DNA of 64,000 nt from positions 85,945 to 149,944 of the forward strand of contig JBGUGE010000076.1 in the NCBI GenBank assembly GCA_045111335.1, given 5' to 3'. Position numbers and translations under genes: made by a program. Positions 24,543-48,072 of the stretch are shown one piece after another. How positions within the stretch are numbered: position 1 is the stretch's first letter; the number at the start of each line of letters is the position of its first letter. The DNA comes from Alphaproteobacteria bacterium (GTDB lineage Bacteria > Pseudomonadota > Alphaproteobacteria > RF32 > CAG-239). The notes beneath the pieces are model-generated. The model saw nothing but the letters and a program-made list of their open reading frames with translations, was not told the origin of the DNA and ran no database searches.

Positions 24543-24561
24543 TGGTTTTCTCCTCTAAAAG

Positions 24562-29316: not shown

Positions 29317-29358
29317 TAGTCACAGCAAACCAATAGTAGTTTGAATTTTCAGTTTGCG

Positions 29359-29381: not shown

Positions 29382-29405
29382 TCAGACTGAAAGAAAGGAG
29401 GAATT

Positions 29406-29750
29406 ATGTTGTACAGAAAAATAAAGAATTTCTTATATAATAACAGATACACAATCGGGTTGGTGCTTTCTTTATTTTTGTATGCAACGGGCGCCTTCGC
29501 CGCAACCGGCGATACCGGTACGTTTAGCGCATTAAGCAACGCCGGTAAGACCATTTTTACAGGATTGCGTAAAATCATTTATCCGGCCGCCACCATCGGT
29601 ATTGCAAGTGTGTGTATCGGCGGAATGTTCGGCAGTTTCAACTGGAAATGGCTGATAGCCATTCTGCTCGGTGTATTTATTATTGCTTATGCCGAACAGA
29701 CCGGTTCGCTTGCTACCGGTGTGGAAGTTGATATGACGGCCAGTCAGTAG
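29406..29750 (+). CDS. virB2: VirB2/TrbC-type pilin, paralog 2
   Basis: 114 aa. AGGAGG RBS. Signal peptide (ATGAFAA). Two hydrophobic helices separated by NWKW. Confidence 0.7.
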   Translation: MLYRKIKNFLYNNRYTIGLVLSLFLYATGAFAATGDTGTFSALSNAGKTIFTGLRKIIYPAATIGIASVCIGGMFGSFNWKWLIAILLGVFIIAYAEQTGSLATGVEVDMTASQ

Positions 29751-29760
29751 GAGAAAAGTC

Positions 29761-30141
29761 ATGATGTGGATGCGTTTTACAGCTTTATTGCTCTTTATGA
29801 CATTCGGCGTGGTGTGTGATGCGTTTGCCGCCGGAGAAGGTGAGATTTTTGACCAGTTGGCCGATCGGGCCATTGTTATCGGCGGCGGACTGCGTGACAG
29901 CGGATATCTGATTGCCGCGTTTGGGTTGGTATTCTTTTCGTTTATGGCAATCTTCAATAAAATTTCATGGAAAAACTTGGGTTATATCATGTTGGGCTGT
30001 TTTATTTTGAGCACAATGTTCTGGTATGTTATGTGGGTTGCCGAGGGTAGCAACAGTATACCTGTATTGAACTTTGATACGCAGGGTGAGGCGGCCGGAA
30101 CCATTCCGGAAAATGCAATTAATGCCATAACTCACAAATAA
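29761..30141 (+). CDS. virB2: VirB2/TrbC-type pilin, paralog 3 (longer C-terminal tail)
   Basis: 126 aa. Signal peptide (CDAFAA). Two hydrophobic helices separated by ISWKN. The tail is SNSIPVLNFDTQGEAAGTIPENAINAITHK. Confidence 0.65.
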   Translation: MMWMRFTALLLFMTFGVVCDAFAAGEGEIFDQLADRAIVIGGGLRDSGYLIAAFGLVFFSFMAIFNKISWKNLGYIMLGCFILSTMFWYVMWVAEGSNSIPVLNFDTQGEAAGTIPENAINAITHK

Positions 30142-30161: not shown

Positions 30162-30605
30162 ATGAAAATTATTCTTCTGTTTCTTATGGTTTGTTTTTCA
30201 GCGTCTCCGGCTTTAGCTTATAAAGAAGACAGTCGTGCCGGCGAGACCCAGTTGACGGCCGGAGAACAGAACAGTAACTTCTATCGATTGACCAGCCGCG
30301 GTTCGGAAGCACTTAAAAAACTCAAGCAGGCCGATGAATACGTCGGCCGTGTTCAGGCTTCCGGCAGACAGGTTAATGCCTCGGCGTTGGAAGATTTATT
30401 AAACTCGGAACAAAAAGATAAAGCCGAACAGGAAATAGAAAGATTGGCGGCAGACGTGCGTCGTCAAACGGCAGAATATGCACAGTTGCGGGTTGTGCCG
30501 GATCACAGTATGTTTGAAATGCTGACAAATATGCGTTCTCAGCAGGCAAAAGATGCGGATATGGCGCAACAATTGGCCGGTCAGTTGCAACGGAGGGGCC
30601 GATGA
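30162..30605 (+). CDS. Secreted coiled-coil protein of unknown function
   Basis: 147 aa. Signal peptide (SASPALA). Charged helical remainder. ATGA overlap with virB3. Confidence 0.6.
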   Translation: MKIILLFLMVCFSASPALAYKEDSRAGETQLTAGEQNSNFYRLTSRGSEALKKLKQADEYVGRVQASGRQVNASALEDLLNSEQKDKAEQEIERLAADVRRQTAEYAQLRVVPDHSMFEMLTNMRSQQAKDADMAQQLAGQLQRRGR

Positions 30606-30892
30606 GAGAAGAGCTGTTAAAAGCCGTTGCGCAACCGCCGAAAGTTTTATGGGCGCCGATGGTGCCGGCCATTATTAATTTGGGAATACAATTTCCGGTA
30701 ATGTTTATGGCCATGGGTGTGGCGGATTTGAACCCGCTGTTTTTCATTGTTTTGATTATTATGGGCCATGTGGCATTGGTTTTTGCCGGCCTGAAAGAGC
30801 CGCACCTGTCGCGTATGCTGCAGGCTTACGGTCAGACATATATTAAAACGACAAATTTGTATCCTGTCAAAGGGAGTAAGTTCGAACCATGA
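30602..30892 (+). CDS. virB3: VirB3/TrbD-like inner-membrane protein
   Basis: 96 aa with two adjacent TM helices after a short N-terminus (PKVLWAPMVPAIINLGIQFPVMFMAMG / LFFIVLIIMGHVALVFAG). ATGA overlaps on both sides. Immediately precedes virB4. Confidence 0.75.
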   Translation: MREELLKAVAQPPKVLWAPMVPAIINLGIQFPVMFMAMGVADLNPLFFIVLIIMGHVALVFAGLKEPHLSRMLQAYGQTYIKTTNLYPVKGSKFEP

Positions 30893-33400: not shown

Positions 33401-33973
33401 ATGATGGGTAAAAAATGGGATATTAAGTACTTGGCGGTCTTAACCATTGTGATGTTTTTCGGCTGTGGAATTGCCTCCGTTTTTGCTGAAATTCCGACCA
33501 GCGACCAGACTGCGGAATCCGAAAAAGCCGAGGATCAATCAACGGAATCCCATGAAGACACTAATGAAGATATGAAAAAAGGGTTTAATGACAAAGCCCA
33601 AGATGAGCGCGGTTACGGTCCGCTTTCTTCTCCCGATTTGTATGGTAATCTGATTGATGATGTGTTAAACGGCAGATTCGGTCAAAACTGGAGCTCGCTG
33701 TTGGGCAAATTCGGCGAAGCAGTTGCTAAAGAGCAGCTTCTTAAAAAAACTCAGCGTAAAGAGATATACATGCGCAAAAAAGCAGTGCGGGAAAAATTGC
33801 ACGAAGAAGATGAGAAAAAACAAAAAGCTGAGGAAGAAATTGCAACAGGTCGTGAAGCCGAAGCTCCGAAAAAGAAGAAATGGTGGAAGAAAAAGTACGA
33901 TTGGTATAAAAGTAACGAGGTGGCTCAAGAAGCCGCCAAGAGTACTAAAGAATATCTGAAGAGCATCAGATAA
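33401..33973 (+). CDS. Secreted, highly charged (K/E-rich) protein of unknown function
   Basis: 190 aa. Signal peptide (GIASVFA). The C-terminal half is K/E-rich with a KKKKWWKKKYDWYK patch. Confidence 0.6.
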   Translation: MMGKKWDIKYLAVLTIVMFFGCGIASVFAEIPTSDQTAESEKAEDQSTESHEDTNEDMKKGFNDKAQDERGYGPLSSPDLYGNLIDDVLNGRFGQNWSSLLGKFGEAVAKEQLLKKTQRKEIYMRKKAVREKLHEEDEKKQKAEEEIATGREAEAPKKKKWWKKKYDWYKSNEVAQEAAKSTKEYLKSIR

Positions 33974-34014
33974 AAGGCATGGAGCGGCTGAACACAAAAA
34001 CAAAGGAGACGGCG

Positions 34015-34638
34015 ATGATGATACATAAAATTAAAAAAGCAATTCGTATAATCGCTTTTATTGCGGTGTTTATCGCCTATTCCGGAAATGCTTATGCAAT
34101 CGGTATTCCGACGTTTTTCAAAAAATATTTGGCGGATGTGATGCGGACTTGGACCGTAGGTACGATTTCTAAAAAGAAAGCAACCAAATATTATAACAAT
34201 GCAAAACTTGCGGAAGAAAATGCCGAACGCGGCAACAATATTGAATCTAACGCGATGTATTCTAAAATGGTCAATAATATGGACTGGGAAAGATTCGGTC
34301 GCGATCCGCTCGGTACGTTTCAGGATGCCAGCGAGAAAACAATGGATCAGGAGCTGCAGGAATACGCTCAAAAGCAAAAGAAGAAGGCCGAAGATTATAT
34401 TGATAAAAAGAAAAATGAACGGAAAAAGAAACAAGCTGATAAAAAGAAGAAAACAACAGGAAACGAAAACGGTAAATCGGATAGCAAAAACGGAGAATAT
34501 CGCGATCAGGTTTTCAAGTGGTTACAAAAGAACAGCGCAGCCGTTGCCACTACCGCCTCATCGGCAGCATCGGGTGACAGAGGCGGAGTTTGGAACGGCG
34601 TAGAGCAGGGTGTTCGCAACAATACCAAAAAGAAATAA
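34015..34638 (+). CDS. Secreted charged protein, possible VirB5/TrbJ-like N-terminus
   Basis: AAGGAG RBS before the ATG at 34015 (alternative start 33979). Signal peptide (SGNAYA). The mature end IGIPTFFKKYL resembles the GIPV-type start of TrbJ/VirB5. A K-rich central region follows. Confidence 0.55.
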   Translation: MMIHKIKKAIRIIAFIAVFIAYSGNAYAIGIPTFFKKYLADVMRTWTVGTISKKKATKYYNNAKLAEENAERGNNIESNAMYSKMVNNMDWERFGRDPLGTFQDASEKTMDQELQEYAQKQKKKAEDYIDKKKNERKKKQADKKKKTTGNENGKSDSKNGEYRDQVFKWLQKNSAAVATTASSAASGDRGGVWNGVEQGVRNNTKKK

Positions 34639-34672
34639 CTGGTGAGAACCGTAACAAAAAAGGAACCGTGTG

Positions 34673-35365
34673 ATGATAAAGACAGATAAATTAATAAAAA
34701 TATTGGTGGTTGTTCTGCTCGGGCTGATGTATAATCCGTCGGCATCCTTTGCCGAGGAGCCGGATGCGGACACGGATACATACCATTATCAAGCTAAGAG
34801 AAGAACCAAATCCGCCGAGCAAATCAGAGCCGAAGAAGAAGAGGAAGATAAAAAAGAAGAAGAAAATATCGACGATGTAAATTATGACAACACATATAAT
34901 AAACTTCCGTTGCTTCCGGAGGCTATGGTTTTGCGCTGCAAGATGAATGCGCAGGATATTGCCGAAGATTTGTCTTTGTTGGATGAGTGTTTCAAAATAA
35001 TTAAAAGGGCGGAAAATAACGCCAATGCAGCCATTAAAATGCAAGCCATTCATGATTTTGACGTTATAAACAATCAGGCTCTGACGGATTCGCTCGCCAA
35101 TGCCAGTCTCAAGTTAATCAGCTCTTCAAACTACGAGGATGCGCAAAACAATTATGTCAACAGTACATTTATGTCGGGAACTCAACGTGAAACAGAAGTA
35201 GCCTTAGGCAATACGCAGGGTTTTCAAAATGACTTGTTGAACAATTATCGCGGGATACTCGCTGAAGAGCTTAAGCGCCGAGCGATTGAGGGAATCATGA
35301 ATATAGACCCGTCGGCGATTCTGAACGAAGACGAATACAACGAAAGCAAACATGCAACACCATAA
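34673..35365 (+). CDS. Secreted helical protein, paralog A of a two-member family (VirB5-position)
   Basis: Signal peptide (NPSASFA). Alignable with the next gene: LPLLPEAMVLRCKMNAQDIAEDLSLLDECFKII vs GELFPPAMVIKCKTNAEDMAKEFSKLEECIKLY; YRGILAEELKRRAIEGIMNIDPSAI vs VRDLYAEELKAMAIAGIQNIDPAAI. The 5' leaders are also similar (aaaaggaacYgtgNgATGATAAA). Confidence 0.65.
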   Translation: MIKTDKLIKILVVVLLGLMYNPSASFAEEPDADTDTYHYQAKRRTKSAEQIRAEEEEEDKKEEENIDDVNYDNTYNKLPLLPEAMVLRCKMNAQDIAEDLSLLDECFKIIKRAENNANAAIKMQAIHDFDVINNQALTDSLANASLKLISSSNYEDAQNNYVNSTFMSGTQRETEVALGNTQGFQNDLLNNYRGILAEELKRRAIEGIMNIDPSAILNEDEYNESKHATP

Positions 35366-35384
35366 AGGAAAAAGGAACTGTGAG

Positions 35385-36755
35385 ATGATAAATATGATTA
35401 GATTTATAAAAATATTTGTACTGGTCCTGTTCGGGCTGTTGTATAATTCATCGCTTTCCTTTGCCGATAGTGTGGAAACGGATACAACTACCAATAAGAG
35501 CGGCTCAATATCATCAGAAAAGACCACCGGTTATGCCATCGGCGGTTCCACCAGCGGCGGCGGTTCGGAACAACCGGGTACCGGGGATGAAGAAGATGAG
35601 GATGAAGACGACGCAGAAGATGAAGAAGAGGATGATGAAGAAGAGGATGACGAAAACGCAAATTACAGCAATCTCTTTCATGGCGGCGAGTTGTTCCCTC
35701 CGGCAATGGTGATTAAATGCAAAACAAATGCGGAAGATATGGCAAAAGAATTCAGTAAATTGGAGGAATGCATCAAACTCTATGTCAGAGATATGAACAG
35801 TTCCAATCCGGCCGCAAAATCACAAGGCATTAAAGATTTCAATACCCTGAATTATCAGTCATTAAGAGCCATGATGACTAATTCAATCGAAAAAATCAAA
35901 ACAATGGCAAACTATAATGAAACGCAAAATAAATACACCGAAACCACCGGTTCGGCCAATACTCAGCGGGATACTACAGGAGGTTCGGCCAACAATCAGG
36001 CATTTTCGGTTAACTTAATCAATGATGTCAGAGATTTGTACGCCGAAGAGCTTAAGGCTATGGCGATTGCGGGAATTCAAAACATTGATCCGGCGGCTAT
36101 TGCGGAAGAGGAAGAACAGGAAGAGGCCGGTACTACCGTTAAGGGTTCTGCTTCAACCGAAACCGATTACGGTACCGTAAGCTCGGAGACCGTAATCAAT
36201 CCGGGTGGTGCAAGTTCCAACAGTCTTAATCCGTATATGGAATATTTCAAGACTGACTACAGTGCACCGAGCGGGAACGGTGATGGTGACGGCAATGGAG
36301 AAAACCCTGATGCAGATGCCAACGGTGACGGTAATGGAGATAATCCTGACGCAGACGGTAACGGAGACAATCCTGACGCAGACGGTAACGGAGATAATCC
36401 TGATGCAGACGCCAACGACGACGGGGGTAAGCCTGATGGAGAGGAACCGCAAGCAGAACCGGAACCGCAAGCAGAACCGGAACCTGAGCCGGAGCCGGAA
36501 CCTGAGCCGGAGCCGGAGCCTGAACCTGCCGGAGTTGATACGTCCGGACTTGAAAATGAGGTTTTCAGACTTTCTAATTTAGATGATGAGGAACTTGCGC
36601 AAAATGCGGGTAACATCAACAGTTTGATAGCACAAGCCGAAGCAATTTTAAATAATCCGAATGCCACGAATCATGACAAAGCGGTGGCATACAGAGCCAA
36701 GCAGGATTTGGAATCTTTGCAAGGTGACATAAAGGACATATTAAATGGTAACTGA
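35385..36755 (+). CDS. Secreted helical protein, paralog B, with acidic N-terminal insert and a C-terminal GNGDNPDAD / EP repeat extension
   Basis: Signal peptide (NSSLSFA). Poly-D/E stretch (DEEDEDEDDAEDEEEDDEEEDDE). A core paralogous to 34673-35365. Tandem repeats, then a helical tail. Confidence 0.65.
   Translation: MINMIRFIKIFVLVLFGLLYNSSLSFADSVETDTTTNKSGSISSEKTTGYAIGGSTSGGGSEQPGTGDEEDEDEDDAEDEEEDDEEEDDENANYSNLFHGGELFPPAMVIKCKTNAEDMAKEFSKLEECIKLYVRDMNSSNPAAKSQGIKDFNTLNYQSLRAMMTNSIEKIKTMANYNETQNKYTETTGSANTQRDTTGGSANNQAFSVNLINDVRDLYAEELKAMAIAGIQNIDPAAIAEEEEQEEAGTTVKGSASTETDYGTVSSETVINPGGASSNSLNPYMEYFKTDYSAPSGNGDGDGNGENPDADANGDGNGDNPDADGNGDNPDADGNGDNPDADANDDGGKPDGEEPQAEPEPQAEPEPEPEPEPEPEPEPEPAGVDTSGLENEVFRLSNLDDEELAQNAGNINSLIAQAEAILNNPNATNHDKAVAYRAKQDLESLQGDIKDILNGN
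36276..36527 (+). repeat. In-frame tandem repeats: about four units of 27 nt (GNG[DE]NPDAD), followed by EPQAEP x2 and (EP)n
   Basis: ggtaacggagaYaatcctgaYgcagac is repeated head-to-tail (36356-36409 and degenerate copies upstream). This is followed by gaaccgcaagcagaaccg x2 and about nine GAR-CCN dipeptide codon pairs. Confidence 0.85.
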
Positions 36756-36800
36756 TGAGGCAAACGGTATTAAAAAGGGCAAAGCAGAAGGGAGGATAAA

Positions 36801-37907
36801 ATGAAGAAATACATATTGACATTTGTAGTGACCATCGGTCTGCTGTTGCCTAAAGATGCATTGGCAATGCTTGATTTTTTGAAAGATTTGGTGGAATTCC
36901 TCGAAAACTGTCAGGAACAAGTTACACGCGTGGTTGACGATTACAATAAATATCAAATGCAGTTGCAAGAATATACAACTACCATGGATAACGTTAAAAA
37001 ATACAAAAAAATGGCACAAAAAGCTGTTGATACCGGAAGAAAGGTCAGACGTGTGGCGTCCGGAGATTATTCGGAATTCTTCAATACCAAACTCAGCAGT
37101 CTGCAGTGGCCGGGACTTGATGCCGCGTCCGATGCCGGTGAATATGTTACGCCGCAAGTCAAACGTCAGGTTGCGCTGTCTTATTTTAAGAAAAGACACA
37201 CCAACAAGGATATTGAAACTACAGCTGCCAAAGATGAGGCAATGAACAATTTAGGCATTGATAACTTGGCGATTGATTATGCCAACGCGCTGTCAAAACG
37301 CAAAAATATGCTGGACGAGTTGGAGAAAGACTCAGATGACGAAGAAGATTCAGATGACGGAAAAGACGTTAATGAGTTAGAGCAAAAATACGGCGTTGTG
37401 AATCGTCGCGCCAATCACCGTTGGCAAGATATAGTAATGTTTGAGGCATCGCATATTTCCAATACGTTGAAACCTAAAGCCAACAATATTCGTGTTGACG
37501 ATATGTCGGAAGTTATCGGTGAAGACGCCAAAGAGGCAGCTACCGAGTTGCAGAATCAGGGTGTGAGAATTCCGGAAAACGGTTCTAACGGATTTTTCAG
37601 AGACAATGTGACTGTCGGTGATGTTTATCGTTTGGCTACATCCGGTATAGACGCATTAAAACGTCAGGATTACTCATCAGCATTCAATTCCATGTCCGGC
37701 TTATATTCCGGCACCGGAAAGAGTGACCCTAAGGTAGAAGAAACATTGCGCAAGATTTCAAGCAAAATGTCTACAAGCGAGTATATTTATGATCGGGCTG
37801 AGGCCGGTGATTATGATAGTGTAATTGATAAAACCTATGACGAAGGTAAAGGCTATTATGACGAAATCAATAAAACAAAAAAAGAAAAGGAGAAAACCAA
37901 TGATTAA
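36801..37907 (+). CDS. VirB5/TrbJ-like secreted protein (extended)
   Basis: Signal peptide (PKDALA). The mature N-terminus MLDFLKDLVEFLENCQEQVTRVVDDYNKYQMQLQEYTTTMDNVKKY resembles the TrbJ/VirB5 N-terminal helix, with a QYQ-x-QLQ-type motif. 368 aa, longer than typical VirB5. Confidence 0.5.
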   Translation: MKKYILTFVVTIGLLLPKDALAMLDFLKDLVEFLENCQEQVTRVVDDYNKYQMQLQEYTTTMDNVKKYKKMAQKAVDTGRKVRRVASGDYSEFFNTKLSSLQWPGLDAASDAGEYVTPQVKRQVALSYFKKRHTNKDIETTAAKDEAMNNLGIDNLAIDYANALSKRKNMLDELEKDSDDEEDSDDGKDVNELEQKYGVVNRRANHRWQDIVMFEASHISNTLKPKANNIRVDDMSEVIGEDAKEAATELQNQGVRIPENGSNGFFRDNVTVGDVYRLATSGIDALKRQDYSSAFNSMSGLYSGTGKSDPKVEETLRKISSKMSTSEYIYDRAEAGDYDSVIDKTYDEGKGYYDEINKTKKEKEKTND

Positions 37908-39165
37908 AAATCTGAAAAATAAGGGAATACTCCTGTTTGTTATGTATCTTTGCGGAGCCGTTTGTCTTTATACGCCGCAGGCTCACGCCATAGCTTTTAT
38001 TGATTCCATTTCGGGATTACTGATGGACTTGGGTAAAAAGATTATGAAAGATCAGAGCAACGAAGAAACAAGTACCAGCGGGCAATTAGAAGAACAAAAC
38101 GCAAAAACCGTAAAGGCTGATGATAACGAAGGTAAAGAATTGTTTGATAACGTTCTTCGTGATACGGCAGATATCGCGCATGATGTGGCCAAAGGTCAAT
38201 ATATGGCCGGTGATTATTCGGCACAAGGTTTTATGGAGGCTTTTTCCAGTCAGTTGGGTGATTTAAGCAGAACCTATGACGACTGGGAAAGAAAGATGAA
38301 CGATAAAATAGAGTCTGAAGAAAAAGCCAAAATGGATAAAAAATTTGAAATGCAAAAACAAATGGTGGTTTTACAATCGCAGCGTGATGCATTAAATGAA
38401 TTGATTATGCAGGAATCTACGGAAGATCGTGTGGCTCAGCTGAATAAGTTGGATGAGGCTATTGCCGATTTGGCTAAGCAAATCAGAGAAAACGATGAAA
38501 AAGATGTAATGAACACCAGCGAAGTCAGAAAAGCTAAACGCGAGATGATGAAACTTGAGCAGAAAATGGAGTCGGTCTCGGCGAAGTATTCGGAACAAAA
38601 TGTTGCCAATATGATGCAGACCGAGATGATGAAATTGTTCCAGACGGATCCGAATAAAGATGAAAAAGAAGCGTATTCCACCGTTATCAGCAAGCTGTTT
38701 TTGCAGGAAGATGAATCGCCGAATTCGGAAAATATCAGACGCATTATGAACGAACGTAAGCGCGAATATTATGACGCCGTTAAAAATGCACTGGAAACGG
38801 TGGTCAGCGCTAAAGACAGCATTGAACAAACCAACAAACGCAGCGAGGAGTGCACACAAATGGTTACGGAGCAGGCAGACGGTGTGTTGGGCTCGTTGGG
38901 TATTGCTCAATGTGTGGAAATGCAAAGAGCCATTGTGGCGGTAGGATATATGGAAATTTTGTTGGCGATGATTCAGTTGGATACTACGGCCGAAATGCAA
39001 AAATGGGATAACAAATATCAACTGCGTGATTATGAAAAAGATATCACGAAATTCAATTTAGACGACTACATGATGAAGAAAGATGATTGGAAAACATCGT
39101 GGCGAGATAAGGCCAGAGAAAGAATCAAAAATGGTTTGGCTCAACATTTCAGCGGATATTTTTAA
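37900..39165 (+). CDS. Secreted coiled-coil protein of unknown function (possibly VirB5-related)
   Basis: AAGGAG RBS before the ATG at 37900, with an 8-nt overlap with the upstream gene. Signal peptide (PQAHA). The mature end IAFIDSISGLLMDLGKKI. Long K/E/M/Q-rich helices. Confidence 0.6.
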   Translation: MIKNLKNKGILLFVMYLCGAVCLYTPQAHAIAFIDSISGLLMDLGKKIMKDQSNEETSTSGQLEEQNAKTVKADDNEGKELFDNVLRDTADIAHDVAKGQYMAGDYSAQGFMEAFSSQLGDLSRTYDDWERKMNDKIESEEKAKMDKKFEMQKQMVVLQSQRDALNELIMQESTEDRVAQLNKLDEAIADLAKQIRENDEKDVMNTSEVRKAKREMMKLEQKMESVSAKYSEQNVANMMQTEMMKLFQTDPNKDEKEAYSTVISKLFLQEDESPNSENIRRIMNERKREYYDAVKNALETVVSAKDSIEQTNKRSEECTQMVTEQADGVLGSLGIAQCVEMQRAIVAVGYMEILLAMIQLDTTAEMQKWDNKYQLRDYEKDITKFNLDDYMMKKDDWKTSWRDKARERIKNGLAQHFSGYF

Positions 39166-39180
39166 TCTGAGGAGGGTACA

Positions 39181-42100
39181 ATGACAATGAGTAATTTGAA
39201 AAAATTTATCTTAGTTTTAATGATGAGTGCTCTCTTCAGAGGAGAGGCAACGGCTATGATGATGGATATGAACCCGTCAACTCCGGGGCCGTCACCGCAG
39301 GCAAATCTGACCGGTACGCCATCCGAATTGTCGTTGTTGACGAGCGCAATTAAGGAAATTAATAAGAATCGGCAGACGCTGAAGTCAATGACCGATATGA
39401 CTCGAATTAAGCAGTTAGCCAAGAGTTATGCCTCTAAGTTGGGAAATACGGCGCTGAATATGCTCAAAGGCCAAAATTTCCAGAAAAACAAAAAGGTTAT
39501 TACTTATTCGCGGACGATTGAGGATTGTAAGGAATATAAGGTTACCGATGAAAACGGCTCTATGCAGCTGGTTAAGGCCAACAATCCGTATTTGGTGAAA
39601 AAAGCGTTTGTAAACCTGTTTTTCCAATATCCGGATAAAAATAATCAGGCTAAATATGCGTACGAGCAAAAAGGTGAGCAACTTAAAATGGATACCACCA
39701 TTGAAATGTTTATCACTGCCAAGGAGCTGCAGAAAAAGTTGGTGGGAAGAGAAATCGAACTGTTCGGGGCTCCGATTGTATTTCCGGATAAAGATCACAG
39801 CGAAGATGTCAGCGATATTGAAGAAAAGCTGAGCAGCGCTTCAATGGAGGATTTGGGGCTGGTTACGCAGTTACGCCTTTATGAAAGATGTCTGGTCGGG
39901 GATCAGTTCTGCGATATAATCGGGGTTACTTCCTGCGTCGGCAAGGGCGATTCCGGCGGTGATCGCGGTGGTCAGGTACAGTCCGGCGGGGGCAATAACA
40001 ACGAAGATATGGCGTGCTTCTGGAACAGCGCCATCAAGGCTGAGAAGTTGTATGATACGATTATGCTCTACAACGAAATGTTGGTTGCCATGCTGGCACA
40101 ATACCGCTCGGTTATGGGTATTTCTTCCATAGCTAAAATCAGAGAATATAAGAGTGAAGAAGAAAATAACAATGACCAAACGTCGGCATTGGAAGCTCCG
40201 TATCATCAAAACAATATCGTGGTTTCGCAAAAAATAACGGCAGATGCGATGTTTGCCGATATGACGGCGGCCGATCGTTTTGCGGAGAGAATGGATAAAA
40301 AATATAAGGATATGATGAAAGATCCGGCCAAAAACACCGGCGGCGATTTTGAGCGTGCAAACGGTGCCACAGGATATTCTCATATATTGGAAAGCCGCAT
40401 GGAAAACTTTGCCGATCTGGAAAGCTTGGCCGCGGCGGAAGAATATGTACAGAAGGCTGAAACGATTCATAGTGCGTTGCAGCGATTGCCGACTTATGAA
40501 GATATATACAAACAACACGAATATATTAAAAGGATGCATGAAATCAGTCGTCAGATGGTGATGTATTCAAGCGAATGTGCCATGAGGATGTTGGAACCGT
40601 ACTATGAAAGTCCGGAAGAGGCAATGTTTGGTGCCAATGACTGTTATGTTGCCCACAACGATGAGGGTGAGCCTAACGGTAAGATTGTTTGCCATACGAT
40701 TAATCATAAGGCGTTTGAGCATCCGAAAACCAGCCTGGAAGAAGTTGCCTGTCGGGATTCATCAAGCGGAACCTGTTATATGGCCGATATTGATGAATAT
40801 ATCGACTCGCTGAGTGAAGAAGATCTGGATGAAAACGGCGAAGAAAAACCGTTGGAGAAACCGGTGTTGGTTGAGGCTCCTTCCAAGGGCGGTATCATGC
40901 AGTACTTAATTGATTTGTATCGCGTGGCCATTGACGGTAATGCCGTTTATGAATATGACAAAGATGTAAACGTCACGGTTGAATCTGCCAACGAAACCGA
41001 AAGTGCAGACTATTCTTCGCACCTCAATATTAAATCGGATGTAGAGAATCCGGAATTGGACGAGGGTAAAAACCGCGGTGCCAAATATATGAATATGTAT
41101 GAAGTGCCGGAAGATGAGAATAATCCGGACGGTGGTGTTCCGCCGACAAATTATGATGAACCGGAAGATTCTTCCACCGTTTTCGTAACCGAACGGGATG
41201 ACGACGAGGTTACGGATAAGGACGGATTTAATGATAAAAGAAAGGATATGGCGGAAAATCCGGGAGATTATGAGCGTGATCCGAGTGACAGAAGCTCACA
41301 GCCGCGTGCTCAGGATGATGCCGCTGCTGACGGATTGACCAATGATACGCAGGTTGAAAATCTGTTGCGTTGGACCATCGGTAAGGAAATAATGAGCGAT
41401 ATTGCACTCGATCTGCCTTGCGGTTTGAACACGGCAGGAGGCGAATGCTATCATGATCCGATTCACTTTGCCGAACCGAAAGCCAAATTTATTGTATGGA
41501 AAGATCAACGGGAATTTTATGATCAATATATCGACGGAAAATATGAAAATATAAAGCAATATATTGAGACGGCTCCGGCAATTATTTTGTTGTTGAACGT
41601 TGCCGAATCTTTAGGTATAGACGCGGGAATTGCCAACAAAATTTTAGATTTCTATGAAGAAGATGAAACCGGAAAAATTGAGGCCGTATTGCAAGAACAG
41701 GACGAAAGATTCAAAAAAGTTGATGAGGACTATCTTGATAAAATCAAGCCGTTGAATGAAGAAAGAGAAGAACTCGTTACCAGAAAAGATGAGCTGGGAA
41801 AAGAACTCAATAAGCAAAACGGTATTTTCAATCAGGCTCGGCGTGAATTGAAGGGTGCCGAATTGGCTAAAAGTAACTCGGACCACGGTAACGAATTCAA
41901 CCGCAATATGTATGAGCAAGCCGGCAGAACCGATGTTGATGTCGATGCCATGCCGCAAACCAGGCAATACACGGAATTGACCGCAAATGCCGAAGCTCGC
42001 CGCGAAGAAGCCGAAAGACAAAAGACAAGATCCAAGGAACGAGCGGAAGAAATTGAAAGAGAGCTTGAAGATATTGAAGACAGACTTGAAGAAATTGATG

Positions 42101-44541
42101 ATGAATTGGTGATATTGCGCCAGAGATACGTTAAAGATTTGAGTGATGCCGAATATATCGATATGACCAAAAGTGAGGATTTAACCTCCGGTATGCTCTC
42201 GGCCAGAAGTGATTTCAACCCGACTACCTTAACCATCGCCGGAGAAGAAATCGAAATGCCGGTTGTGCCGTTAGCCACGGAATTGATGAGTTGCGTTCGC
42301 GATAAGATGCTCGATATAATTAAAAAGCATGAAGAAAAATATCTTGAAACCATGCGCGGATATATGTATTCCATCAACAACTATGTCAAACCTAACTTAA
42401 ATCCGATAAAGTCACCGTTGGTGTACCATCAGGAACTGATGAAGAAATTGACTAATTTAACGGCCGCTGATCTTGCGGGTTGTCCGGGGGTTGATGTTTT
42501 TGCCGGAGTTACGGGCGGAATCAACTTTTTTGCTCATACCTGCGGCGATGACGGAGAAAAATGTCTGAAAGCGCCGGTAGAGCTCGACCTTGAGAATAAT
42601 GCGCAAGAATCCTGCAACAATATTATGGAACCGGATATGAACGGAGAGGGATATCTGAACCGCGATAATTTGGCATACTTTGTCGGCATGATCGGGCAAC
42701 CGAAAGACCTGTTGGCACCGTATCCTCCGGGATGTCCGATAGGTGACGAAGGGATACCGCTGCGCGAAACGGTTCACTTCAACAGCGATGACTATTCATC
42801 CATCTCCAAGTATTTCCAAAGACGTGGACCATTCGGCCTGAAACAGGGCGATGAGGACGATGCCGAAGAAAATACGGATATGTATATCAGCCTTCGCTTG
42901 TTGCTCAAAGAGCTGCTTAGTGAGACTCCGGGTATGCAAATTACCTCAACGGATAATTACATCGGCGGCGTAGAGGGGGCAAAAACATCAATTATGCCGT
43001 ATTTCTGGAAGTGGATTTTGAGCCCGCGTACATACATTCAGCGTAAGTTTGATTTAAGAAAGCTGATTGGTGTTCAAAACGGTACTTCCGAAGAAAGAGT
43101 GGTCGCCAAGCGCACACAACAAGAGCTTCGCCGCTCCGGTATGTATCCGTGCCGCTCTTATGAATATGATATGGAGGGCAAACCTACCCACAGAGTATTT
43201 TATGATAAATACGGTGTTTCTACCGGTGTTGAGGTTCAATACTTTGTTGATCTTGATCGCGAATTGCATTTCAGCATACCGCAAATGCCGCCTGAAAAAT
43301 ATACACGTGAAAATCCGTATATTATCGGCCGTATGAGTCAACATCCGGAATGGTTGCTTTATACATCGGTACCGTATAATTCCGAACACCCTGAAGAAAC
43401 TCCTATCCCAGAAGTAATCAGAGGCGTCCGCGAGTGTTTGGCGGTTCAGGCACGGGTTGAAGATCCGGAAACCGGCGAAGGTTTGCGCGTGTTTGACCTT
43501 GAAACCGAGGCAGATATGGACAACCACACCTATGATTATGTCGGTCCGGGTGAAGGCGGCTATGCCGGCAGTGAATTGGGACAAATCTTTACCTATTACC
43601 GCAATAATGGGGATAAGATTATGGTTAAAGAACATAATGAAACCGCGTGCGAAGCAATCTGCGGTTCGAGTTCAATATGCCGCAGTATGGTTCCGGAATG
43701 TCAGGACGAAGTCTTAAACGACCCGTTACGCCTAACGTTTAACGCAATGCTTATTAAGTCCTTCTTTACCAACTACGAAGATTACGGTCGGGAAGGCCAT
43801 GAAGAAGAAACGTCGTGGCAAAATAATGCAACTCGGGTTGCGTTGGATAAAAACCAGTTCGGAGATTTCTTGGATCAGGTTGAATCCATGCGCGTAACGG
43901 CCGATAATCTGCTCAATTCCGAGAAGAAGATGAGCAGTGTTCAGCACGATTTGGAAGAGTCCTTAAACATTCAGGAAGACGATCAACTCGCCAACGCATC
44001 CGGTGAGCAGGAAGACAGTCCGGACAGATTTGTGTTCGGTCCGGATTTCAAACTGATTAATGATCCGGAAAACGAAAACGATGACTATGATCGTCTGCGC
44101 AGAGCGTTGATTGAGCGCAAGATGTATTATCTTGATTCGGCTCTCTCGATTTTGCAAGATCTGCAATTTACGCAAACTTATACAACCGAAGACGGTTCTA
44201 CGGTTTCGGGAGATGCCGTTGAAACGATTAAACGTCGTTTTCTCGACATATTGCGCCGCATTACGTTGTATAAGATAGACAGCGAAAATTGCGGCGGTTA
44301 CGCCGACTGCGGTATCGAGGATTATCCGGGAGATTTGGTAACCATCGGCGGCGACGAAATCGAAGCTGATGAAAACGGTGAGTTCCATTTGGAGGGCAGT
44401 GAGATGCTCGAAAAAATGAAACAGGCTAAGGCCGACTGGGATATCATTGTTGAAACGGCCGCCGAACAAGATGCAGAACGTGAAAAGCGTCTGCGGAAGT
44501 TTGTTCGCCCGTATTGCACCTCGTATTGGCGTGTTTTCTAA
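39181..44541 (+). CDS. 1786-aa secreted Cys-rich giant protein of unknown function
   Basis: GAGGAGGG RBS. Signal peptide (LFRGEATA). About 30 Cys, often in close pairs (FCDIIGVTSC, CEAICGSSSICRSMVPEC, CGGYADC). A central R/E coiled coil (RREEAERQKTRSKERAEEIERELEDIEDRLEEIDDE). No internal TM helices. Confidence 0.8.
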   Translation: MTMSNLKKFILVLMMSALFRGEATAMMMDMNPSTPGPSPQANLTGTPSELSLLTSAIKEINKNRQTLKSMTDMTRIKQLAKSYASKLGNTALNMLKGQNFQKNKKVITYSRTIEDCKEYKVTDENGSMQLVKANNPYLVKKAFVNLFFQYPDKNNQAKYAYEQKGEQLKMDTTIEMFITAKELQKKLVGREIELFGAPIVFPDKDHSEDVSDIEEKLSSASMEDLGLVTQLRLYERCLVGDQFCDIIGVTSCVGKGDSGGDRGGQVQSGGGNNNEDMACFWNSAIKAEKLYDTIMLYNEMLVAMLAQYRSVMGISSIAKIREYKSEEENNNDQTSALEAPYHQNNIVVSQKITADAMFADMTAADRFAERMDKKYKDMMKDPAKNTGGDFERANGATGYSHILESRMENFADLESLAAAEEYVQKAETIHSALQRLPTYEDIYKQHEYIKRMHEISRQMVMYSSECAMRMLEPYYESPEEAMFGANDCYVAHNDEGEPNGKIVCHTINHKAFEHPKTSLEEVACRDSSSGTCYMADIDEYIDSLSEEDLDENGEEKPLEKPVLVEAPSKGGIMQYLIDLYRVAIDGNAVYEYDKDVNVTVESANETESADYSSHLNIKSDVENPELDEGKNRGAKYMNMYEVPEDENNPDGGVPPTNYDEPEDSSTVFVTERDDDEVTDKDGFNDKRKDMAENPGDYERDPSDRSSQPRAQDDAAADGLTNDTQVENLLRWTIGKEIMSDIALDLPCGLNTAGGECYHDPIHFAEPKAKFIVWKDQREFYDQYIDGKYENIKQYIETAPAIILLLNVAESLGIDAGIANKILDFYEEDETGKIEAVLQEQDERFKKVDEDYLDKIKPLNEEREELVTRKDELGKELNKQNGIFNQARRELKGAELAKSNSDHGNEFNRNMYEQAGRTDVDVDAMPQTRQYTELTANAEARREEAERQKTRSKERAEEIERELEDIEDRLEEIDDELVILRQRYVKDLSDAEYIDMTKSEDLTSGMLSARSDFNPTTLTIAGEEIEMPVVPLATELMSCVRDKMLDIIKKHEEKYLETMRGYMYSINNYVKPNLNPIKSPLVYHQELMKKLTNLTAADLAGCPGVDVFAGVTGGINFFAHTCGDDGEKCLKAPVELDLENNAQESCNNIMEPDMNGEGYLNRDNLAYFVGMIGQPKDLLAPYPPGCPIGDEGIPLRETVHFNSDDYSSISKYFQRRGPFGLKQGDEDDAEENTDMYISLRLLLKELLSETPGMQITSTDNYIGGVEGAKTSIMPYFWKWILSPRTYIQRKFDLRKLIGVQNGTSEERVVAKRTQQELRRSGMYPCRSYEYDMEGKPTHRVFYDKYGVSTGVEVQYFVDLDRELHFSIPQMPPEKYTRENPYIIGRMSQHPEWLLYTSVPYNSEHPEETPIPEVIRGVRECLAVQARVEDPETGEGLRVFDLETEADMDNHTYDYVGPGEGGYAGSELGQIFTYYRNNGDKIMVKEHNETACEAICGSSSICRSMVPECQDEVLNDPLRLTFNAMLIKSFFTNYEDYGREGHEEETSWQNNATRVALDKNQFGDFLDQVESMRVTADNLLNSEKKMSSVQHDLEESLNIQEDDQLANASGEQEDSPDRFVFGPDFKLINDPENENDDYDRLRRALIERKMYYLDSALSILQDLQFTQTYTTEDGSTVSGDAVETIKRRFLDILRRITLYKIDSENCGGYADCGIEDYPGDLVTIGGDEIEADENGEFHLEGSEMLEKMKQAKADWDIIVETAAEQDAEREKRLRKFVRPYCTSYWRVF

Positions 44542-44563: not shown

Positions 44564-45316
44564 GTGGCTCAACTTGGAGACGGAACAAAGAAAATCTTAA
44601 TAACCGATCGAAACCGGCAACCTGATACCGGCTATCAGCCTCAGTTTATTAAGGATATACGGCAGGAAACAACATCAAGCAAAGAAGTCTATTTCAGATG
44701 GCTTTCGCGATTGGTGATACTTTGTGCCATTATTTCCCTGACTTTCTTTTTGAGTTCGACTCTGGTGATCTTTCGGTTGGGTCGGGAGATTATCGTTGAG
44801 CCGCTTTTAATCATCAATCAAAAGGATTCGGAAACAATAGCGCGTTATGAGCCGATTGATAAAAAAATGCCGTCGGAAAAGCAACTTACCGAGATGTATA
44901 TCAGACAGTATGTTTCTCTGCGCAACACGGTTATCAACGATGAGCAGGAAATGCGGACGCGTTGGGGGCCGGGCGGTATTGTGCAATATATGTCGGCGCC
45001 GGATGTTTATAAAGAATTTATCGGCGCAAACATGCAAACAATCGAAAAAATGTTTGATAACGAGTATTCCAGCGAGGTTTATATTGACAGAATCTATAAA
45101 GAAAGCGAGGAATCTCCGGCTTGGACCGTCTCGTTTACCATATTTAATCTTTCCCGAACTCGCAACGATTCCGGTTCTCTGACCTTAAAGACCATGCGCT
45201 ACAAGGCTTCAGTTACTCCTGCGTATATTGAAGATCGCCGCCTTATGAAAGCGCGTTTGATAAATCCGATAGGGTTTACGGTCATAAAATATAATCAAAG
45301 CGAAATAAGAGAATAA
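44564..45316 (+). CDS. virB8: VirB8/TrbF-like bitopic protein, copy 1
   Basis: 250 aa. GTG start. Cytoplasmic N-terminus, one TM (LVILCAIISLTFFLSSTLVIF), and a ~170-aa periplasmic domain. Shares blocks with copy 2 (IRQYV-LR-T, RW--GG, MS-P-VY-EF, MRYKAS / MKYRAS, NP[IV]GFTV). Confidence 0.7.
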   Translation: MAQLGDGTKKILITDRNRQPDTGYQPQFIKDIRQETTSSKEVYFRWLSRLVILCAIISLTFFLSSTLVIFRLGREIIVEPLLIINQKDSETIARYEPIDKKMPSEKQLTEMYIRQYVSLRNTVINDEQEMRTRWGPGGIVQYMSAPDVYKEFIGANMQTIEKMFDNEYSSEVYIDRIYKESEESPAWTVSFTIFNLSRTRNDSGSLTLKTMRYKASVTPAYIEDRRLMKARLINPIGFTVIKYNQSEIRE

Positions 45317-45462: not shown

Positions 45463-45651
45463 ATGTATAAAAAAATTTTGATTTTTGCTATATTTTTGAT
45501 TCTGTCGGCATGCAGTTTGTTCGGTTCGTATTATGAACCGGAGGCTGTGGGAATCGGTAAAGACATCAACGAGTTAAAGCTGTCTCCGTGCGCTTGTATG
45601 CAGATTGATGTGATTAAAAACGTGCCTGATTGGTTTTGGGAAACAATTTAG
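45463..45651 (+). CDS. VirB7-like small lipoprotein
   Basis: 62 aa. Lipobox LILSAC. The small size and its position just upstream of virB8-2/virB9 are typical of VirB7/TrbH-type lipoproteins. The ATG at 45463 is preferred over the track start at 45412. Confidence 0.55.
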   Translation: MYKKILIFAIFLILSACSLFGSYYEPEAVGIGKDINELKLSPCACMQIDVIKNVPDWFWETI

Positions 45652-45666: not shown

Positions 45667-46419
45667 ATGGCAGATCAGTTAGGGATAAACAATACGCAGC
45701 AAAAACTAATAGCTTCCGGTCAAAAACGTCCGGCGCAAAATACTCGTGCGTCCGTGCATCGCGATGTTACCAGAGAAGATGACAGTCTGGTTGTTAACGC
45801 AAGCGAAAAAAGATATTTATGGACGGCGCGTGCATTTGCAGTTGTAACGGCCATCAGTTTGTGCTGTAACCTGATTTTATTGCTGACGATTGCGCAAATT
45901 TTGCCGCTGTATCGCGTTGAGCCGTATTTGCTGACCTTATCCAATAAGGAGGAACAGGTCTACAATATTATACCGTACAGCCGCGATATGGAGGCAAAAA
46001 AATCAATTACGGAGACATTTATCAGACAATACGTCTTGCTGCGCACCACTTTGCTTTCGGATATAGAAGAAATGGAAGCTCGTTGGCAAAACGGCGGCGA
46101 TTTGCAAAAAATGTCTTCTCCGATTGTGTATCAGGAATTTATGAGCGAAACCGGCCCGAAGCTGATGAAACGTATGAAAGAAGACGGCCTGACCAGTAAT
46201 GTATCGATTATTACGGTAAATGAAATTTCGGATTCATTATGGCAGGTGGAATATAGTGTTGATTATTATTTGCCGTCGTCATATACGCCGAAAAAGATGA
46301 AATATCGCGCCAGTATGCGTGTTCAGTATATTCCGCAACGCGTTTCATATAAGGAAAGATTGAAAAATCCGGTCGGATTTACGGTGCTTTCTTATTCAAT
46401 CAAACAAATAAAAGATTAG
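45667..46419 (+). CDS. virB8: VirB8/TrbF-like bitopic protein, copy 2
   Basis: 250 aa, the same architecture as copy 1 (TM FAVVTAISLCCNLILLLTIAQIL), and alignable with it over the periplasmic domain. Confidence 0.7.
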   Translation: MADQLGINNTQQKLIASGQKRPAQNTRASVHRDVTREDDSLVVNASEKRYLWTARAFAVVTAISLCCNLILLLTIAQILPLYRVEPYLLTLSNKEEQVYNIIPYSRDMEAKKSITETFIRQYVLLRTTLLSDIEEMEARWQNGGDLQKMSSPIVYQEFMSETGPKLMKRMKEDGLTSNVSIITVNEISDSLWQVEYSVDYYLPSSYTPKKMKYRASMRVQYIPQRVSYKERLKNPVGFTVLSYSIKQIKD

Positions 46420-46434: not shown

Positions 46435-48072
46435 ATGAGAATGAGCGTTAAAACACTGATATTGATAATGATGGGAATATTACTTTCCGGTAACGTTTAT
46501 GCCGCGGGTTTGGTCACCGACGACAGTCTGGACCAATCGGCCGATCAGGCTCAGGGAAATTATCAATCCATGAATCTCGGATATGCCGGTTTCGGTTCTA
46601 TCGGTATGTTTCAGGAGGCATGGCAGGATCCTTTGCAAAATTTGGGCGAGGGACAAAGTAAACCGGCTTATTCTAAGTATTACTGGTCGCCGGACTTGGT
46701 ATTGCCTATCAGATTACGTGAAGGTATGATTACATTGTTGAATTTTCCGGAATGGGAATTGATTGAACATGTGTTTGTCGGCGATACGGGAACTTTTGCC
46801 GGATACATCAATCCGCCTAACACGGTTATGTTGTATCCGAAACAGGGCGCAACCGTCGGCAACGATACCAACGTGATTGTTATCGGTCGCTCCGGCAACA
46901 AATATGTGTTTTATGCGCGCAGTGAAGGAATTAATACCGAAAGGATTACCAACTCCATCATAGATATTGATGTTGTCGGCGACGGCACATCGGGAGGTGG
47001 TCCCAGGGGTGGCGAGATAGCAGGCGGCAGCGGCCGTGTAAGCGCTGTGGGATTTGGTACCGGTGGTCTGGAAAAAACGGCAGATGCTACGTTTACTCGT
47101 CGGTTTTTGAAGGAAGATTGGTTGAAAAGTATACCGATGGATCCGGAAAAATTCCGCTTTGATATCGAAATATATGTGCCTAATCCGGATGATGTGATTA
47201 TTGCCCCGGAACGCGCTTGGCATGATGATATTTTTACCTATATCGATTTGGGAGAAAAGGCTATTAATATGATACAGCGCCCGATTGTAACCATGATTAT
47301 CGAACGCTCGGAAACACCTGTCGGTTTCAGAACCAAAGGTCCGAACAATCGGTTGATTATTGTTGAGGGCGTGGGCGATATGGTAATGCGCAGCGGCAAG
47401 CGAATGGTATGCTTGAAAATGCGTCGTTCCGATGAAGAAGGTACGCAATATGTAACCTATGCCGATACCAGCAATGAGTGGGATATCGCACCGGCTATTC
47501 CGGGTAAAGGCGGCAACAACGGGGCCGGCGGGAACGGTGCATCGGGTGCGTCCGGCGGTCAAAATCCGACCGGAGTAGGTTCCGGTAGCGCTGCGGGAGC
47601 CGGTGGAGCTAACGGAGGCGGTGTATACGTACCGAACGGTGCCAATGCAGAATCCGGCGGCGGTGTATATGTTCCGAACGGTGCCAACGCAGGCGGATAT
47701 CCGGGAGATATTGATTGCAGCGGTATGGCGCAGTTGAGCACCATTGATAGCAGCAGGGGTAAGAATTTGCCTTCGCAATATCGCTATGGCAGCGGCTTTG
47801 AAGGACAAACCTCTGACAGTCTGTCGATAGAATTGGGTACGGATTCAAATGTCAACAATCTGGAAACGTTATGGCATGATTTATCCGGTCGCTATTCGTC
47901 ACTTTTGAGCAATTATGAGCCGTTCTATTCGGTAGATACACCGGCGGACGGACAAGGCAAAGAGTTGTTCCACCTGCGGGTAGGTCCGGTCAAGAGTTTG
48001 GACAGCGGTGATGCCGTGTGCAGCCAACTCGGCAGAAACGGTGTATTTTGTAGTGTAGTCAGGGTGCAATAA
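46435..48072 (+). CDS. virB9: VirB9/CagX-like protein fused via a Gly-rich linker to a C-terminal SPOR-like domain
   Basis: Signal peptide (SGNVYA). N-terminal VirB9 block (LPIRLREGMITLLNFPEWELIEHVFVGDTGTFAG...NVIVIGRSGNKYVFYARS). C-terminal VirB9 block (WHDDIFTYIDLGEK...PIVTMIIERSETPVGFRTKGPNNRLIIVEGVGDMVMRSGKRMVCLKM). G/N/A-rich linker. The final ~75 aa (LSIELGT...LFHLRVGPVKSLDSGDAVCSQLGRNGVFCSVVRVQ) fit the SPOR pattern. Confidence 0.8.
   Translation: MRMSVKTLILIMMGILLSGNVYAAGLVTDDSLDQSADQAQGNYQSMNLGYAGFGSIGMFQEAWQDPLQNLGEGQSKPAYSKYYWSPDLVLPIRLREGMITLLNFPEWELIEHVFVGDTGTFAGYINPPNTVMLYPKQGATVGNDTNVIVIGRSGNKYVFYARSEGINTERITNSIIDIDVVGDGTSGGGPRGGEIAGGSGRVSAVGFGTGGLEKTADATFTRRFLKEDWLKSIPMDPEKFRFDIEIYVPNPDDVIIAPERAWHDDIFTYIDLGEKAINMIQRPIVTMIIERSETPVGFRTKGPNNRLIIVEGVGDMVMRSGKRMVCLKMRRSDEEGTQYVTYADTSNEWDIAPAIPGKGGNNGAGGNGASGASGGQNPTGVGSGSAAGAGGANGGGVYVPNGANAESGGGVYVPNGANAGGYPGDIDCSGMAQLSTIDSSRGKNLPSQYRYGSGFEGQTSDSLSIELGTDSNVNNLETLWHDLSGRYSSLLSNYEPFYSVDTPADGQGKELFHLRVGPVKSLDSGDAVCSQLGRNGVFCSVVRVQ
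47617..47700 (+). repeat. 42-nt in-frame direct duplication in the Gly-rich linker (GGVYVPNGANA x2)
   Basis: ggcggtgtataYgtWccgaacggtgccaaYgca occurs at 47617 and again at 47659. Confidence 0.85.

Follow-up and report, generated by a model that had tools for sequence, protein, structure and literature searches.

A giant protein family at the VirB6 gene position of a divergent chromosomal type IV secretion operon in uncultured Alphaproteobacteria

In type IV secretion systems (T4SSs), VirB6 is treated as a universal subunit, acting as the central stalk and as the platform for pilus assembly; it is needed for pilus biogenesis and substrate transfer, and it is usually anchored in the inner membrane. 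The axial stalk consists of VirB6/VirB5 pentamers in R388 and of DotA/IcmX in Dot/Icm (PMC12857230), and a 2025 review describes VirB6 as highly conserved among all T4SSs and as forming a central pentamer together with VirB5 (PMC12857230). Here we consider a T4SS operon located in a 64-kb stretch of alphaproteobacterial DNA (contig JBGUGE010000076.1 of assembly GCA_045111335.1), the whole of which is called the window below. The largest gene of this operon encodes a protein of 1786 amino acids (aa), referred to as the giant, and this gene is found at the position of virB6 in an operon that has no VirB6.

The giant gene extends from 39181 to 44541 on the plus strand and starts with ATG. A preliminary description of this DNA had reported it as the largest gene of the operon, situated just before virB8, and the open reading frame (ORF) and its translation bear this out at the exact coordinates; by size it is followed by genes for proteins of 1411 and 1389 aa. 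A ribosome-binding site (GAGGAGG) is located 6 nt 5' of the ATG, the previous stop codon is 15 nt before the start, and virB8 starts 22 nt after the end. The order in the window is B4, six ORFs, giant, B8, B7-like, B8, and the slot of the giant is that of virB6 in R388 and six other VirB operons, where the order is B5, Eex, B6, B7, B8.

That the operon contains no VirB6/TrbL had likewise been stated before, and this holds for the operon, for the whole window and for 16 further syntenic loci. Between virB4 and virB11, no ORF on the plus strand has more than one hydrophobic segment, and the intergenic gaps in the operon are too short to conceal a virB6. The TrbL/VirB6 family (PF04610) has no match in the giant or in any other ORF of the operon (Pfam, E<=0.01), nor in 11 members of the giant family (E<=0.1), while the same Pfam model finds the positive controls, R388 TrwI and a Rhizobium VirB6, at ca 5e-50 to 1e-49. 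The full list of polytopic proteins in the window comprises a GldF/G-like ABC permease, MsbA, a T2SSF pilus platform, YidC and a Bax1-I protein. In the other 16 loci, neither a polytopic ORF nor a TrbL match was found from virB4 to virB10, within stretches of ca 25 kb around the operon. Since all these loci behave in the same way, the lack of VirB6 in the operon is a trait of the whole T4SS lineage and not of one assembly.

Some candidates for a hidden VirB6 were considered and rejected. Antisense ORFs inside the giant gene of loci L004 and L006 (415 and 517 aa, 7 hydrophobic segments) appear polytopic, but they lack both a family match and conservation in the window, and they are an artefact to be expected on the complement of a purine-rich coding strand. 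The 551-aa gene at 26923-28578 has a single transmembrane (TM) segment and a long acidic region.

The synteny comparison comprised the window and 16 distinct loci, in which some family members are only ca 20% identical to the giant, and gene order was compared as far as each locus extends. The common order is VirB2 paralogues, VirB3, VirB4, 3-6 ORFs, giant, VirB8, small lipoprotein, VirB8, VirB9, large protein, VirB10. The 3-6 ORFs before the giant in the other loci have no family match and mostly carry a signal peptide; the TM-anchored protein before VirB10 has 1100-2100 aa across the loci, and VirB10 has beta-flower repeats. The giant is present in every locus sampled, in the same slot and collinear over a core of ca 1300 aa. 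As the gene order is the same wherever the loci reach far enough, these operons form a distinct T4SS lineage, of which the giant is a constant part.

Relatives of the giant were searched for in several ways. A word-indexed search of 5.8 billion proteins returned 11, all unnamed and without Pfam domains, and word-indexed searches with family alignments gave no others. A scan of genome contigs placed these 11 in metagenome-assembled genomes (MAGs) from the rumen, which are labelled Alphaproteobacteria or proteobacterium. An exhaustive HMMER scan covered 1.84 billion cluster representatives; with the giant of the window minus its linker and coiled coil as query, it yielded 134 proteins at E<=1e-3, 71 of them at E<=1e-10, mostly of 1100-1850 aa. 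Nearly all of the 118 full-length relatives have an N-terminal signal peptide; single extra hydrophobic segments are rare, and a polytopic core is found in none of them. All named members are designated 'hypothetical protein' of an Alphaproteobacteria MAG, and the giant and the family profiles match nothing in Pfam, NCBIfam or the PDB sequences except generic coiled coil. The giant founds a new, unannotated protein family; the kind of T4SS is already known, and it is the family of the giant subunit that is new. Literature searches returned no description of this T4SS type, nor of a soluble giant replacing VirB6 in the operon layout.

The giant is a Sec-exported, soluble and acidic protein, probably stabilised by disulfides. 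The preliminary description had given it a signal peptide and no TM helices, and the hydrophobicity scan agrees. The Sec signal peptide (residues 1-25; 39181..39255, plus strand) consists of K7K8, the hydrophobic stretch FILVLMMSALF and an A-x-A cleavage site, A23-T-A25 followed by M, at which A25 is invariant among 11 close members and A23 nearly so. Beyond the signal, a Kyte-Doolittle scan gives no TM helix and a single weak hydrophobic segment at residues 800-818. By composition, the mature protein has ca 200 kDa, a pI of 4.6 and 19% D+E.

The cysteines, earlier counted as about 30 in close pairs, are in fact 27. The clustering is confirmed (C237/244/252, C488/504/524/532, C747/756, C1121/1128, C1490/1494/1500/1507 and C1704/1710), and the Cys fraction of 1.53%, ordinary in absolute terms, exceeds by a factor of 2-10 the values for the remaining exported proteins of this T4SS (VirB9 0.73%, the 1411-aa protein 0.57%, VirB10 0.14%). 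Disulfide bonding is suggested because the cysteines are conserved. Richness in cysteine is, however, not supported as a defining trait, since family-wide conservation is limited to four positions, namely C466 in 110 of the 118 sequences and C1324, C1419 and C1779 in 111-114. The remaining 23 cysteines are specific to the rumen clade, in which 10 are invariant in the N-terminal half and 13-14 over the whole protein.

The architecture was derived from an alignment (A5) of the 118 full-length members, which are collinear. The core conserved across the family consists of ca 1300 aa with the four cysteines and a heptad hairpin of ca 150 Å. Conserved blocks are found at residues ~140-180, 271-330, 390-480, 571-600, 721-810, 840-1010, 1160-1330, 1410-1470, 1530-1590 and 1620-1650 and at the C-terminus. 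The first four of these are the conserved cores of the N-terminal region (residues 26-600; 39256..40980, plus strand), which is mostly helical and is modelled by AlphaFold with a low predicted local distance difference test score (pLDDT) of 46; conservation and occupancy profiles place clade-specific Cys-bearing inserts at residues 181-270 and 481-570. The linker that follows (residues 601-720; 40981..41340, plus strand) has 29% D+E, is poorly conserved, shows low occupancy in the family and a pLDDT <50, and is probably disordered. The best-conserved block (residues 721-830; 41341..41670, plus strand) carries the pattern W..G.E ... W.DQ..FY.QY..GKY.NI..Y, after which comes the weakly hydrophobic helix 800-818. 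In this block W773 and K787 are invariant among the 118 sequences, W731, G734, D775, Y780, Y783, Y788 and N790 are conserved in >=90%, and many distant members matched best here.

Next comes an antiparallel coiled-coil hairpin (41671..42213, plus strand), with arms at residues ~815-913 and ~925-1011, each of ca 150 Å. AlphaFold2 was run on the two halves of the giant with 11 sequences, giving pLDDT values of 46 and 54.5, and the confident part is limited to residues ~784-1064, where the means of 10-residue blocks are 52-89, and 67-89 in the hairpin. The two helices are modelled as antiparallel, with ~99 and ~87 residues. In the 118 sequences the arms show a sharp hydrophobic periodicity of 3.5 residues in an a/d pattern, and the length of the hairpin is kept, with a median of 166 residues and an interquartile range of 159-174. 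The acidic stretches and the central R/E-rich coiled coil of the preliminary description thus correspond to residues 601-720 and ~831-1011, the latter backed by both AlphaFold and the heptad periodicity.

The C-terminal region (residues 1012-1786; 42214..44541, plus strand) is mixed alpha/beta, with a low-confidence model outside the hairpin, and contains the motifs YFVG..(6)D..AP, PLRE.FHFD, P..W...L, RSG.YPC, SELG, NQ.GD.L and the terminal PYCA.Y, which is the usual ending across the family. The giant shows all the features that define the family, namely a signal peptide, a set of motifs (H430-N431, W773, K787-Y788, F1167-V1168, P1273, W1276, RSG.YPC, SELG and PYCA.Y), the central heptad hairpin and a gene placed directly before virB8a. 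Its extra length is due to clade-specific inserts: the interval 466-571 has 105 residues here compared to a family median of 35, the interval 571-731 has 160 compared to 83, the interval 1324-1419 has 95 compared to 32, and the interval 1559-1779 has 220 compared to 159.

We now turn to the evolutionary rates. Compared to the nearest other species (locus L001), the giant is 47% identical and the six upstream ORFs 42-58%, while the values are 95% for VirB4, 97% for the VirB7-like protein, 80% and 88% for VirB8a and VirB8b, 80% for the 1411-aa protein, 79% for VirB10 and 73% for VirB9. In closer orthologue pairs, the ratio of nonsynonymous to synonymous divergence (dN/dS) is 0.09-0.12 for the giant, which argues that it is functional. 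The corresponding values are 0.02 for VirB4 (0.08 in the closest pair, whose copy is frameshifted), 0.03-0.04 for VirB8b, 0.03-0.06 for VirB10, 0.07-0.10 for VirB9 and ~0.07-0.38 for the small ORFs and VirB2 paralogues, with 0.07-0.25 for the six ORFs at 33401-39165. The giant is thus under purifying selection, less constrained than the core and evolving 2-5 times faster than VirB4, VirB8 and VirB10.

In the L005/L007 pair, the block formed by o368, o446 and the giant (36801-44541 in the window) has a synonymous divergence (dS) of 0.39-0.59 vs 0.06-0.26 in the flanking T4SS genes, and this excess of 2-5 times over its neighbours suggests recombination or old alleles at the block. The metagenome contigs over the region are too fragmentary for strain-level dN/dS, and reads of other species cross-mapped onto virB4. 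In L007 (RUG10918), both virB4 (1997-4355) and the giant gene (9998-15054) are split by frameshifts, which could be an assembly error or strain-level decay of the T4SS.

Regarding the role of the giant, the fact that its slot is that of virB6, combined with the lack of VirB6, suggests an axial function spanning the periplasm. Because the giant is always present, in a fixed position, collinear and under purifying selection, it would be a part of the machine rather than accessory cargo, and because the giant, the small ORFs and the VirB2 paralogues all evolve fast, a distal placement facing the environment is expected. Fast evolution in known T4SSs is a feature of distal, exposed parts such as the pilin, VirB5 and the stalk. 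The surface or tip contact proposed in the preliminary description fits the fast rates of the giant and of the secreted ORFs before it relative to VirB4, VirB8 and VirB10, and is in this sense compatible with the data.

In the mechanism that we propose, the giant would be a fixed subunit of a divergent chromosomal VirB-type T4SS of uncultured Alphaproteobacteria, whose sources include gut and rumen. Along with the small secreted proteins whose genes precede its own, it would build the axial part, which starts at the inner-membrane complex, crosses the periplasm and ends at the cell surface. The conserved 150 Å hairpin could serve as a spacer or tube element, by analogy with adaptor proteins and TolC alpha-barrels, and the giant would take over at least the periplasmic share of the VirB6 role. 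The localisation, the oligomeric state, the stalk or tip role and any replacement of VirB6 are inferred, and we estimate the probability that the giant is a lineage-specific axial stalk-to-tip subunit, taking at least in part the periplasmic role of VirB6, to be roughly 40%. A bolder formulation is doubtful, namely that this T4SS lineage has neither a polytopic VirB6 nor a recognisable VirB5, and that its stalk or channel is made of the oligomerised ~150 Å hairpins of a soluble, Sec-exported protein of 1100-1850 aa.

It is important to point out that several results weigh against the assignment as an axial stalk-to-tip subunit. No homology or fold link of the giant to any T4SS subunit was found. 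In hhalign, the giant profile (118 sequences) compared to a VirB6 profile (7 sequences) gives a probability of 0.16%, and compared to VirB5, represented by the single sequence of R388 TrwJ and therefore a weak test, 0.23%. The PDB sequence matches are limited to generic coiled coil, even though the R388, Cag, Dot/Icm and F machines are included there. Outside the hairpin, the models from AlphaFold are of poor quality and so demonstrate no oligomeric or channel geometry. The giant is also without a membrane anchor, unlike VirB6. Moreover, virD4 is absent from the window as well, which means that the T4SS genes are scattered and that a canonical virB6 may be elsewhere. Finally, the public runs containing the giant sequence are DNA runs only, with no RNA run among them. 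The ORF just upstream of the giant was compared to the same single TrwJ sequence, also with an hhalign probability of 0.23% and no similarity.

Of the other explanations, the one that fares best, although we regard it as rather unlikely, is that the giant serves as an accessory subunit of the envelope or as a surface adhesin, which adds a ring or contact structure and replaces nothing, with a canonical VirB6, probably together with VirD4, at another locus. Such a protein can be likened to the Cag3/CagM/CagY or DotF/DotH additions, and the operon has other large additions, namely the 1411-aa beta-flower protein and the extended VirB10. The absence of virD4 from the whole window indicates that the T4SS genes are not kept together, as in Rickettsiales, and VirB6 is regarded as universal (PMC12857230). 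The missing membrane anchor would fit. The giant also evolves fast, has Cys-rich and acidic inserts peculiar to its clade and belongs to the o368-o446-giant block with its raised dS, all of which an exposed protein facing host or prey might show. However, the giant is exactly in the B6 slot at every locus, and neither the 64-kb window nor the ~25-kb stretches of the 16 other loci contain a VirB6. Furthermore, no adhesin-type domains or repeats were detected, and the giant is collinearly conserved over its whole length, unlike typical modular adhesins.

A quite improbable alternative is that the giant, perhaps along with the small secreted ORFs, is cargo that is exported by Sec, folds and forms its disulfides in the periplasm, and is then moved by the T4SS across the outer membrane in the style of pertussis toxin and Ptl. 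The likeness to that system lies in the Sec signal, the periplasmic disulfides and the VirD4-less T4SS operon: the giant has a signal peptide and conserved cysteines, it is encoded within the secretion operon, VirD4 is absent from both operon and window, and the giant evolves faster than the core subunits. A Foldseek comparison of both half models with the PDB gave nothing at E<=0.001; the top matches are alpha-pore-forming toxins and SMC arms, aligned on the coiled coil, and the best, non-significant folds for the C-terminal model are the alpha-pore-forming toxins AhlB, SmhB and MakA, at E 0.03-0.3. These toxin matches could be read in favour of cargo, but they are non-significant and involve the coiled coil, and neither a toxin nor an enzyme domain was detected. 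The presence of cargo genes is usually variable, whereas the giant keeps the same position in all sampled loci over very deep divergence. In addition, the Ptl system retains VirB6, as PtlD, so the analogy would leave the missing VirB6 unexplained.

That the ORF is not a functional T4SS gene at all, but decaying, mis-assembled or an unrelated hitch-hiker, as the split giant and virB4 of L007 might suggest, is effectively excluded by the conservation data, given an intact ORF of 1100-1850 aa in >100 clusters, a dN/dS of ~0.1, a strong ribosome-binding site with tight operon spacing, strict synteny, and an identical sequence assembled independently in several public runs.

The remaining genes of the operon are all on the plus strand. 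It begins with three VirB2 pilin paralogues (28972-30141; Pfam TrbC/VirB2), followed by a 147-aa secreted ORF seen in the ORF scan and by VirB3 (30602-30892), a separate protein of 96 aa with two TM helices and a weak Pfam match. In the distant loci L014 (1370-3577) and L017 (2079-3572), the third VirB2 copy carries a fused extension of 500-850 aa and may be called an 'extended VirB2'. VirB4 (30889-33318; Pfam CagE_TrbE_VirB, NCBIfam VirB4) has a hydrophobic N-terminal segment at residues ~9-37 that is kept in all related loci. The six ORFs between virB4 and the giant (33401..39165) encode proteins of 190, 219, 231, 467, 368 and ~421-446 aa, all hydrophilic, with a signal peptide and with no family match in Pfam or NCBIfam. 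Two of them, o231 and o467 (34670-36755), are paralogues with the common core ...P.AMV..CK.NA.D.A..., and o467 has extra (EP)n and GDGNGDNPDAD repeats reminiscent of a TonB-type spacer; in this interval, tracts of poly-GAA (E/K) draw a very high metagenome cross-mapping depth.

After the giant come VirB8a (44564-45316; PF04335), a VirB7-like lipoprotein of 62 aa with the lipobox LSAC (45463-45651), VirB8b (45667-46419; Pfam/NCBIfam) and VirB9 (46435-48072), whose CagX domain is followed by a C-terminal SPOR-like peptidoglycan-binding domain, scoring 20.4 bits against a Pfam cut-off of 21. The 1411-aa TM-anchored protein (48073-52308) has a cytoplasmic tail, one strong TM helix and beta-flower/YD repeats, and VirB10 (52311-56480) has a TrbI domain and a beta-flower extension of ~1000 aa. 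The tail and TM helix of the former are what the N-terminus of VirB10 should have, while the TrbI-domain VirB10 begins with a segment resembling a signal peptide; VirB10 is thus split or expanded in appearance, and both proteins are kept in all related loci. VirB11 is probably at 56491-57465, with 324 aa in the L024 orthologue.

Since all VirB matches fall under the curators' equivalog cut-offs of NCBIfam, the T4SS is very divergent. VirD4, a relaxase and a VirB1 transglycosylase were not detected within the window. The neighbours of the operon are a type IVb pilus cluster at one end and engB-yidC-yidD-rnpA-rpmH at the other, with tyrS, uvrA and msbA farther out, and the G+C content is uniform over the window. 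Because it adjoins rpmH-rnpA-yidD-yidC-engB and has the same G+C as its surroundings, the T4SS is chromosomal and vertically inherited, and not a conjugative element. The conjugation context of the preliminary description is therefore not upheld by this locus, which is chromosomal beside rpmH-rnpA-yidC and has no relaxase or coupling protein in the window.

The type IVb pilus cluster (17966-28578, minus strand), which resembles the R64 thin pilus, is divergent from the T4SS operon. It contains, likewise on the minus strand, a T2SSF platform protein (18519-19640), a GspE/PilQ-type ATPase (19653-21425), PilO (23277-24542), a PilN-family secretin (24562-26190) and a TcpQ-like protein (26156-26875), and its first gene is the 551-aa one rejected above as a VirB6 (26923-28578). 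This gene has a same-position counterpart in the distant loci L014, L016 and L017, and because it keeps its position there, the pilus cluster and the T4SS may be functionally linked.

The locus thus presents an otherwise complete VirB2-B11 operon, spread over >100 protein clusters of uncultured Alphaproteobacteria, with an unrelated soluble giant at the VirB6 position. If the genomes prove to be without VirB6 elsewhere, this lineage shows how a T4SS axis can be constructed from another set of parts, and such a genome-wide loss would provide a direct comparative test of what VirB6 does. A conduit made of hairpins, if true, would add a third way of building the T4SS axis to those represented by VirB6/VirB5 and DotA/IcmX. 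Even with a VirB6 elsewhere, a new and sizeable protein family is defined, as well as a distinctive type of chromosomal T4SS, marked by a VirB10 that is extended and apparently split, by the fusion of VirB9 to SPOR and by the type IVb pilus cluster paired with it. The hosts are abundant and unstudied gut and rumen bacteria, for which epibiotic, predatory and protist-associated lifestyles are candidates.

Finally, we compare the giant with known systems. The preliminary description had pointed to F-type TraN (PF06986), which shares with the giant its large size, its export, its association with a T4SS and its many cysteines. Kinship with TraN is not supported, as PF06986 has no match in 11 members of the family (E<=0.1) and NCBIfam gives none either, and as the operon is VirB-like and not F-like, with homologues of VirB2/3/4/8/9/10/11, no match to any F-specific family and no conjugation genes at the chromosomal locus. 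The giant itself, by contrast to TraN, is predicted to be largely helical and has four family-wide cysteines. The pertussis toxin/Ptl system differs in keeping its VirB6, and the giant, universal in the sampled loci, has no toxin domain.

In the Cag system, CagH, CagI, CagL and the oversized CagY are similar to the giant in being lineage-specific, Sec-exported and fast-evolving, and their genes lie among those for the core of an expanded T4SS. CagY is itself a giant protein, with Cys-bearing helical repeats. No homology was detected, however (the Cag chains in the PDB are unmatched), and the giant is non-repetitive and not a VirB10 homologue. The alpha-hairpins of membrane fusion proteins and the TolC-type alpha-barrels (EmrA, HlyD, MacA) share with the giant an exported, long antiparallel hairpin of a length that can bridge the periplasm, and EmrA is among the PDB coiled-coil matches of the giant. 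Since this likeness is generic coiled coil only, with no lipoyl or beta-barrel domain of these adaptors detected, the analogy is one of form.

The extended VirB6 proteins of Rickettsiales (RvhB6a-e; Anaplasma VirB6-4) and DotA are likewise comparable. Like the giant, they are very large, have big hydrophilic domains, are encoded after virB4 and occur in alphaproteobacterial or host-associated settings, and they fill the B6 role. They keep a polytopic core, however, which none of the 118 members of the giant family has, and no DotA or TrbL match of the family was found in NCBIfam or Pfam. The canonical VirB6/TrbL proteins (R388 TrwI, A. tumefaciens VirB6; PF04610) have ~300-350 aa and 5-6 hydrophobic helices, whereas the giant has 1786 aa, is soluble with a signal peptide only and shows neither sequence nor profile similarity to them. 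What the two have in common is the slot, after virB4 and small secreted proteins and before virB7/virB8, and possibly the role of a central periplasmic stalk.

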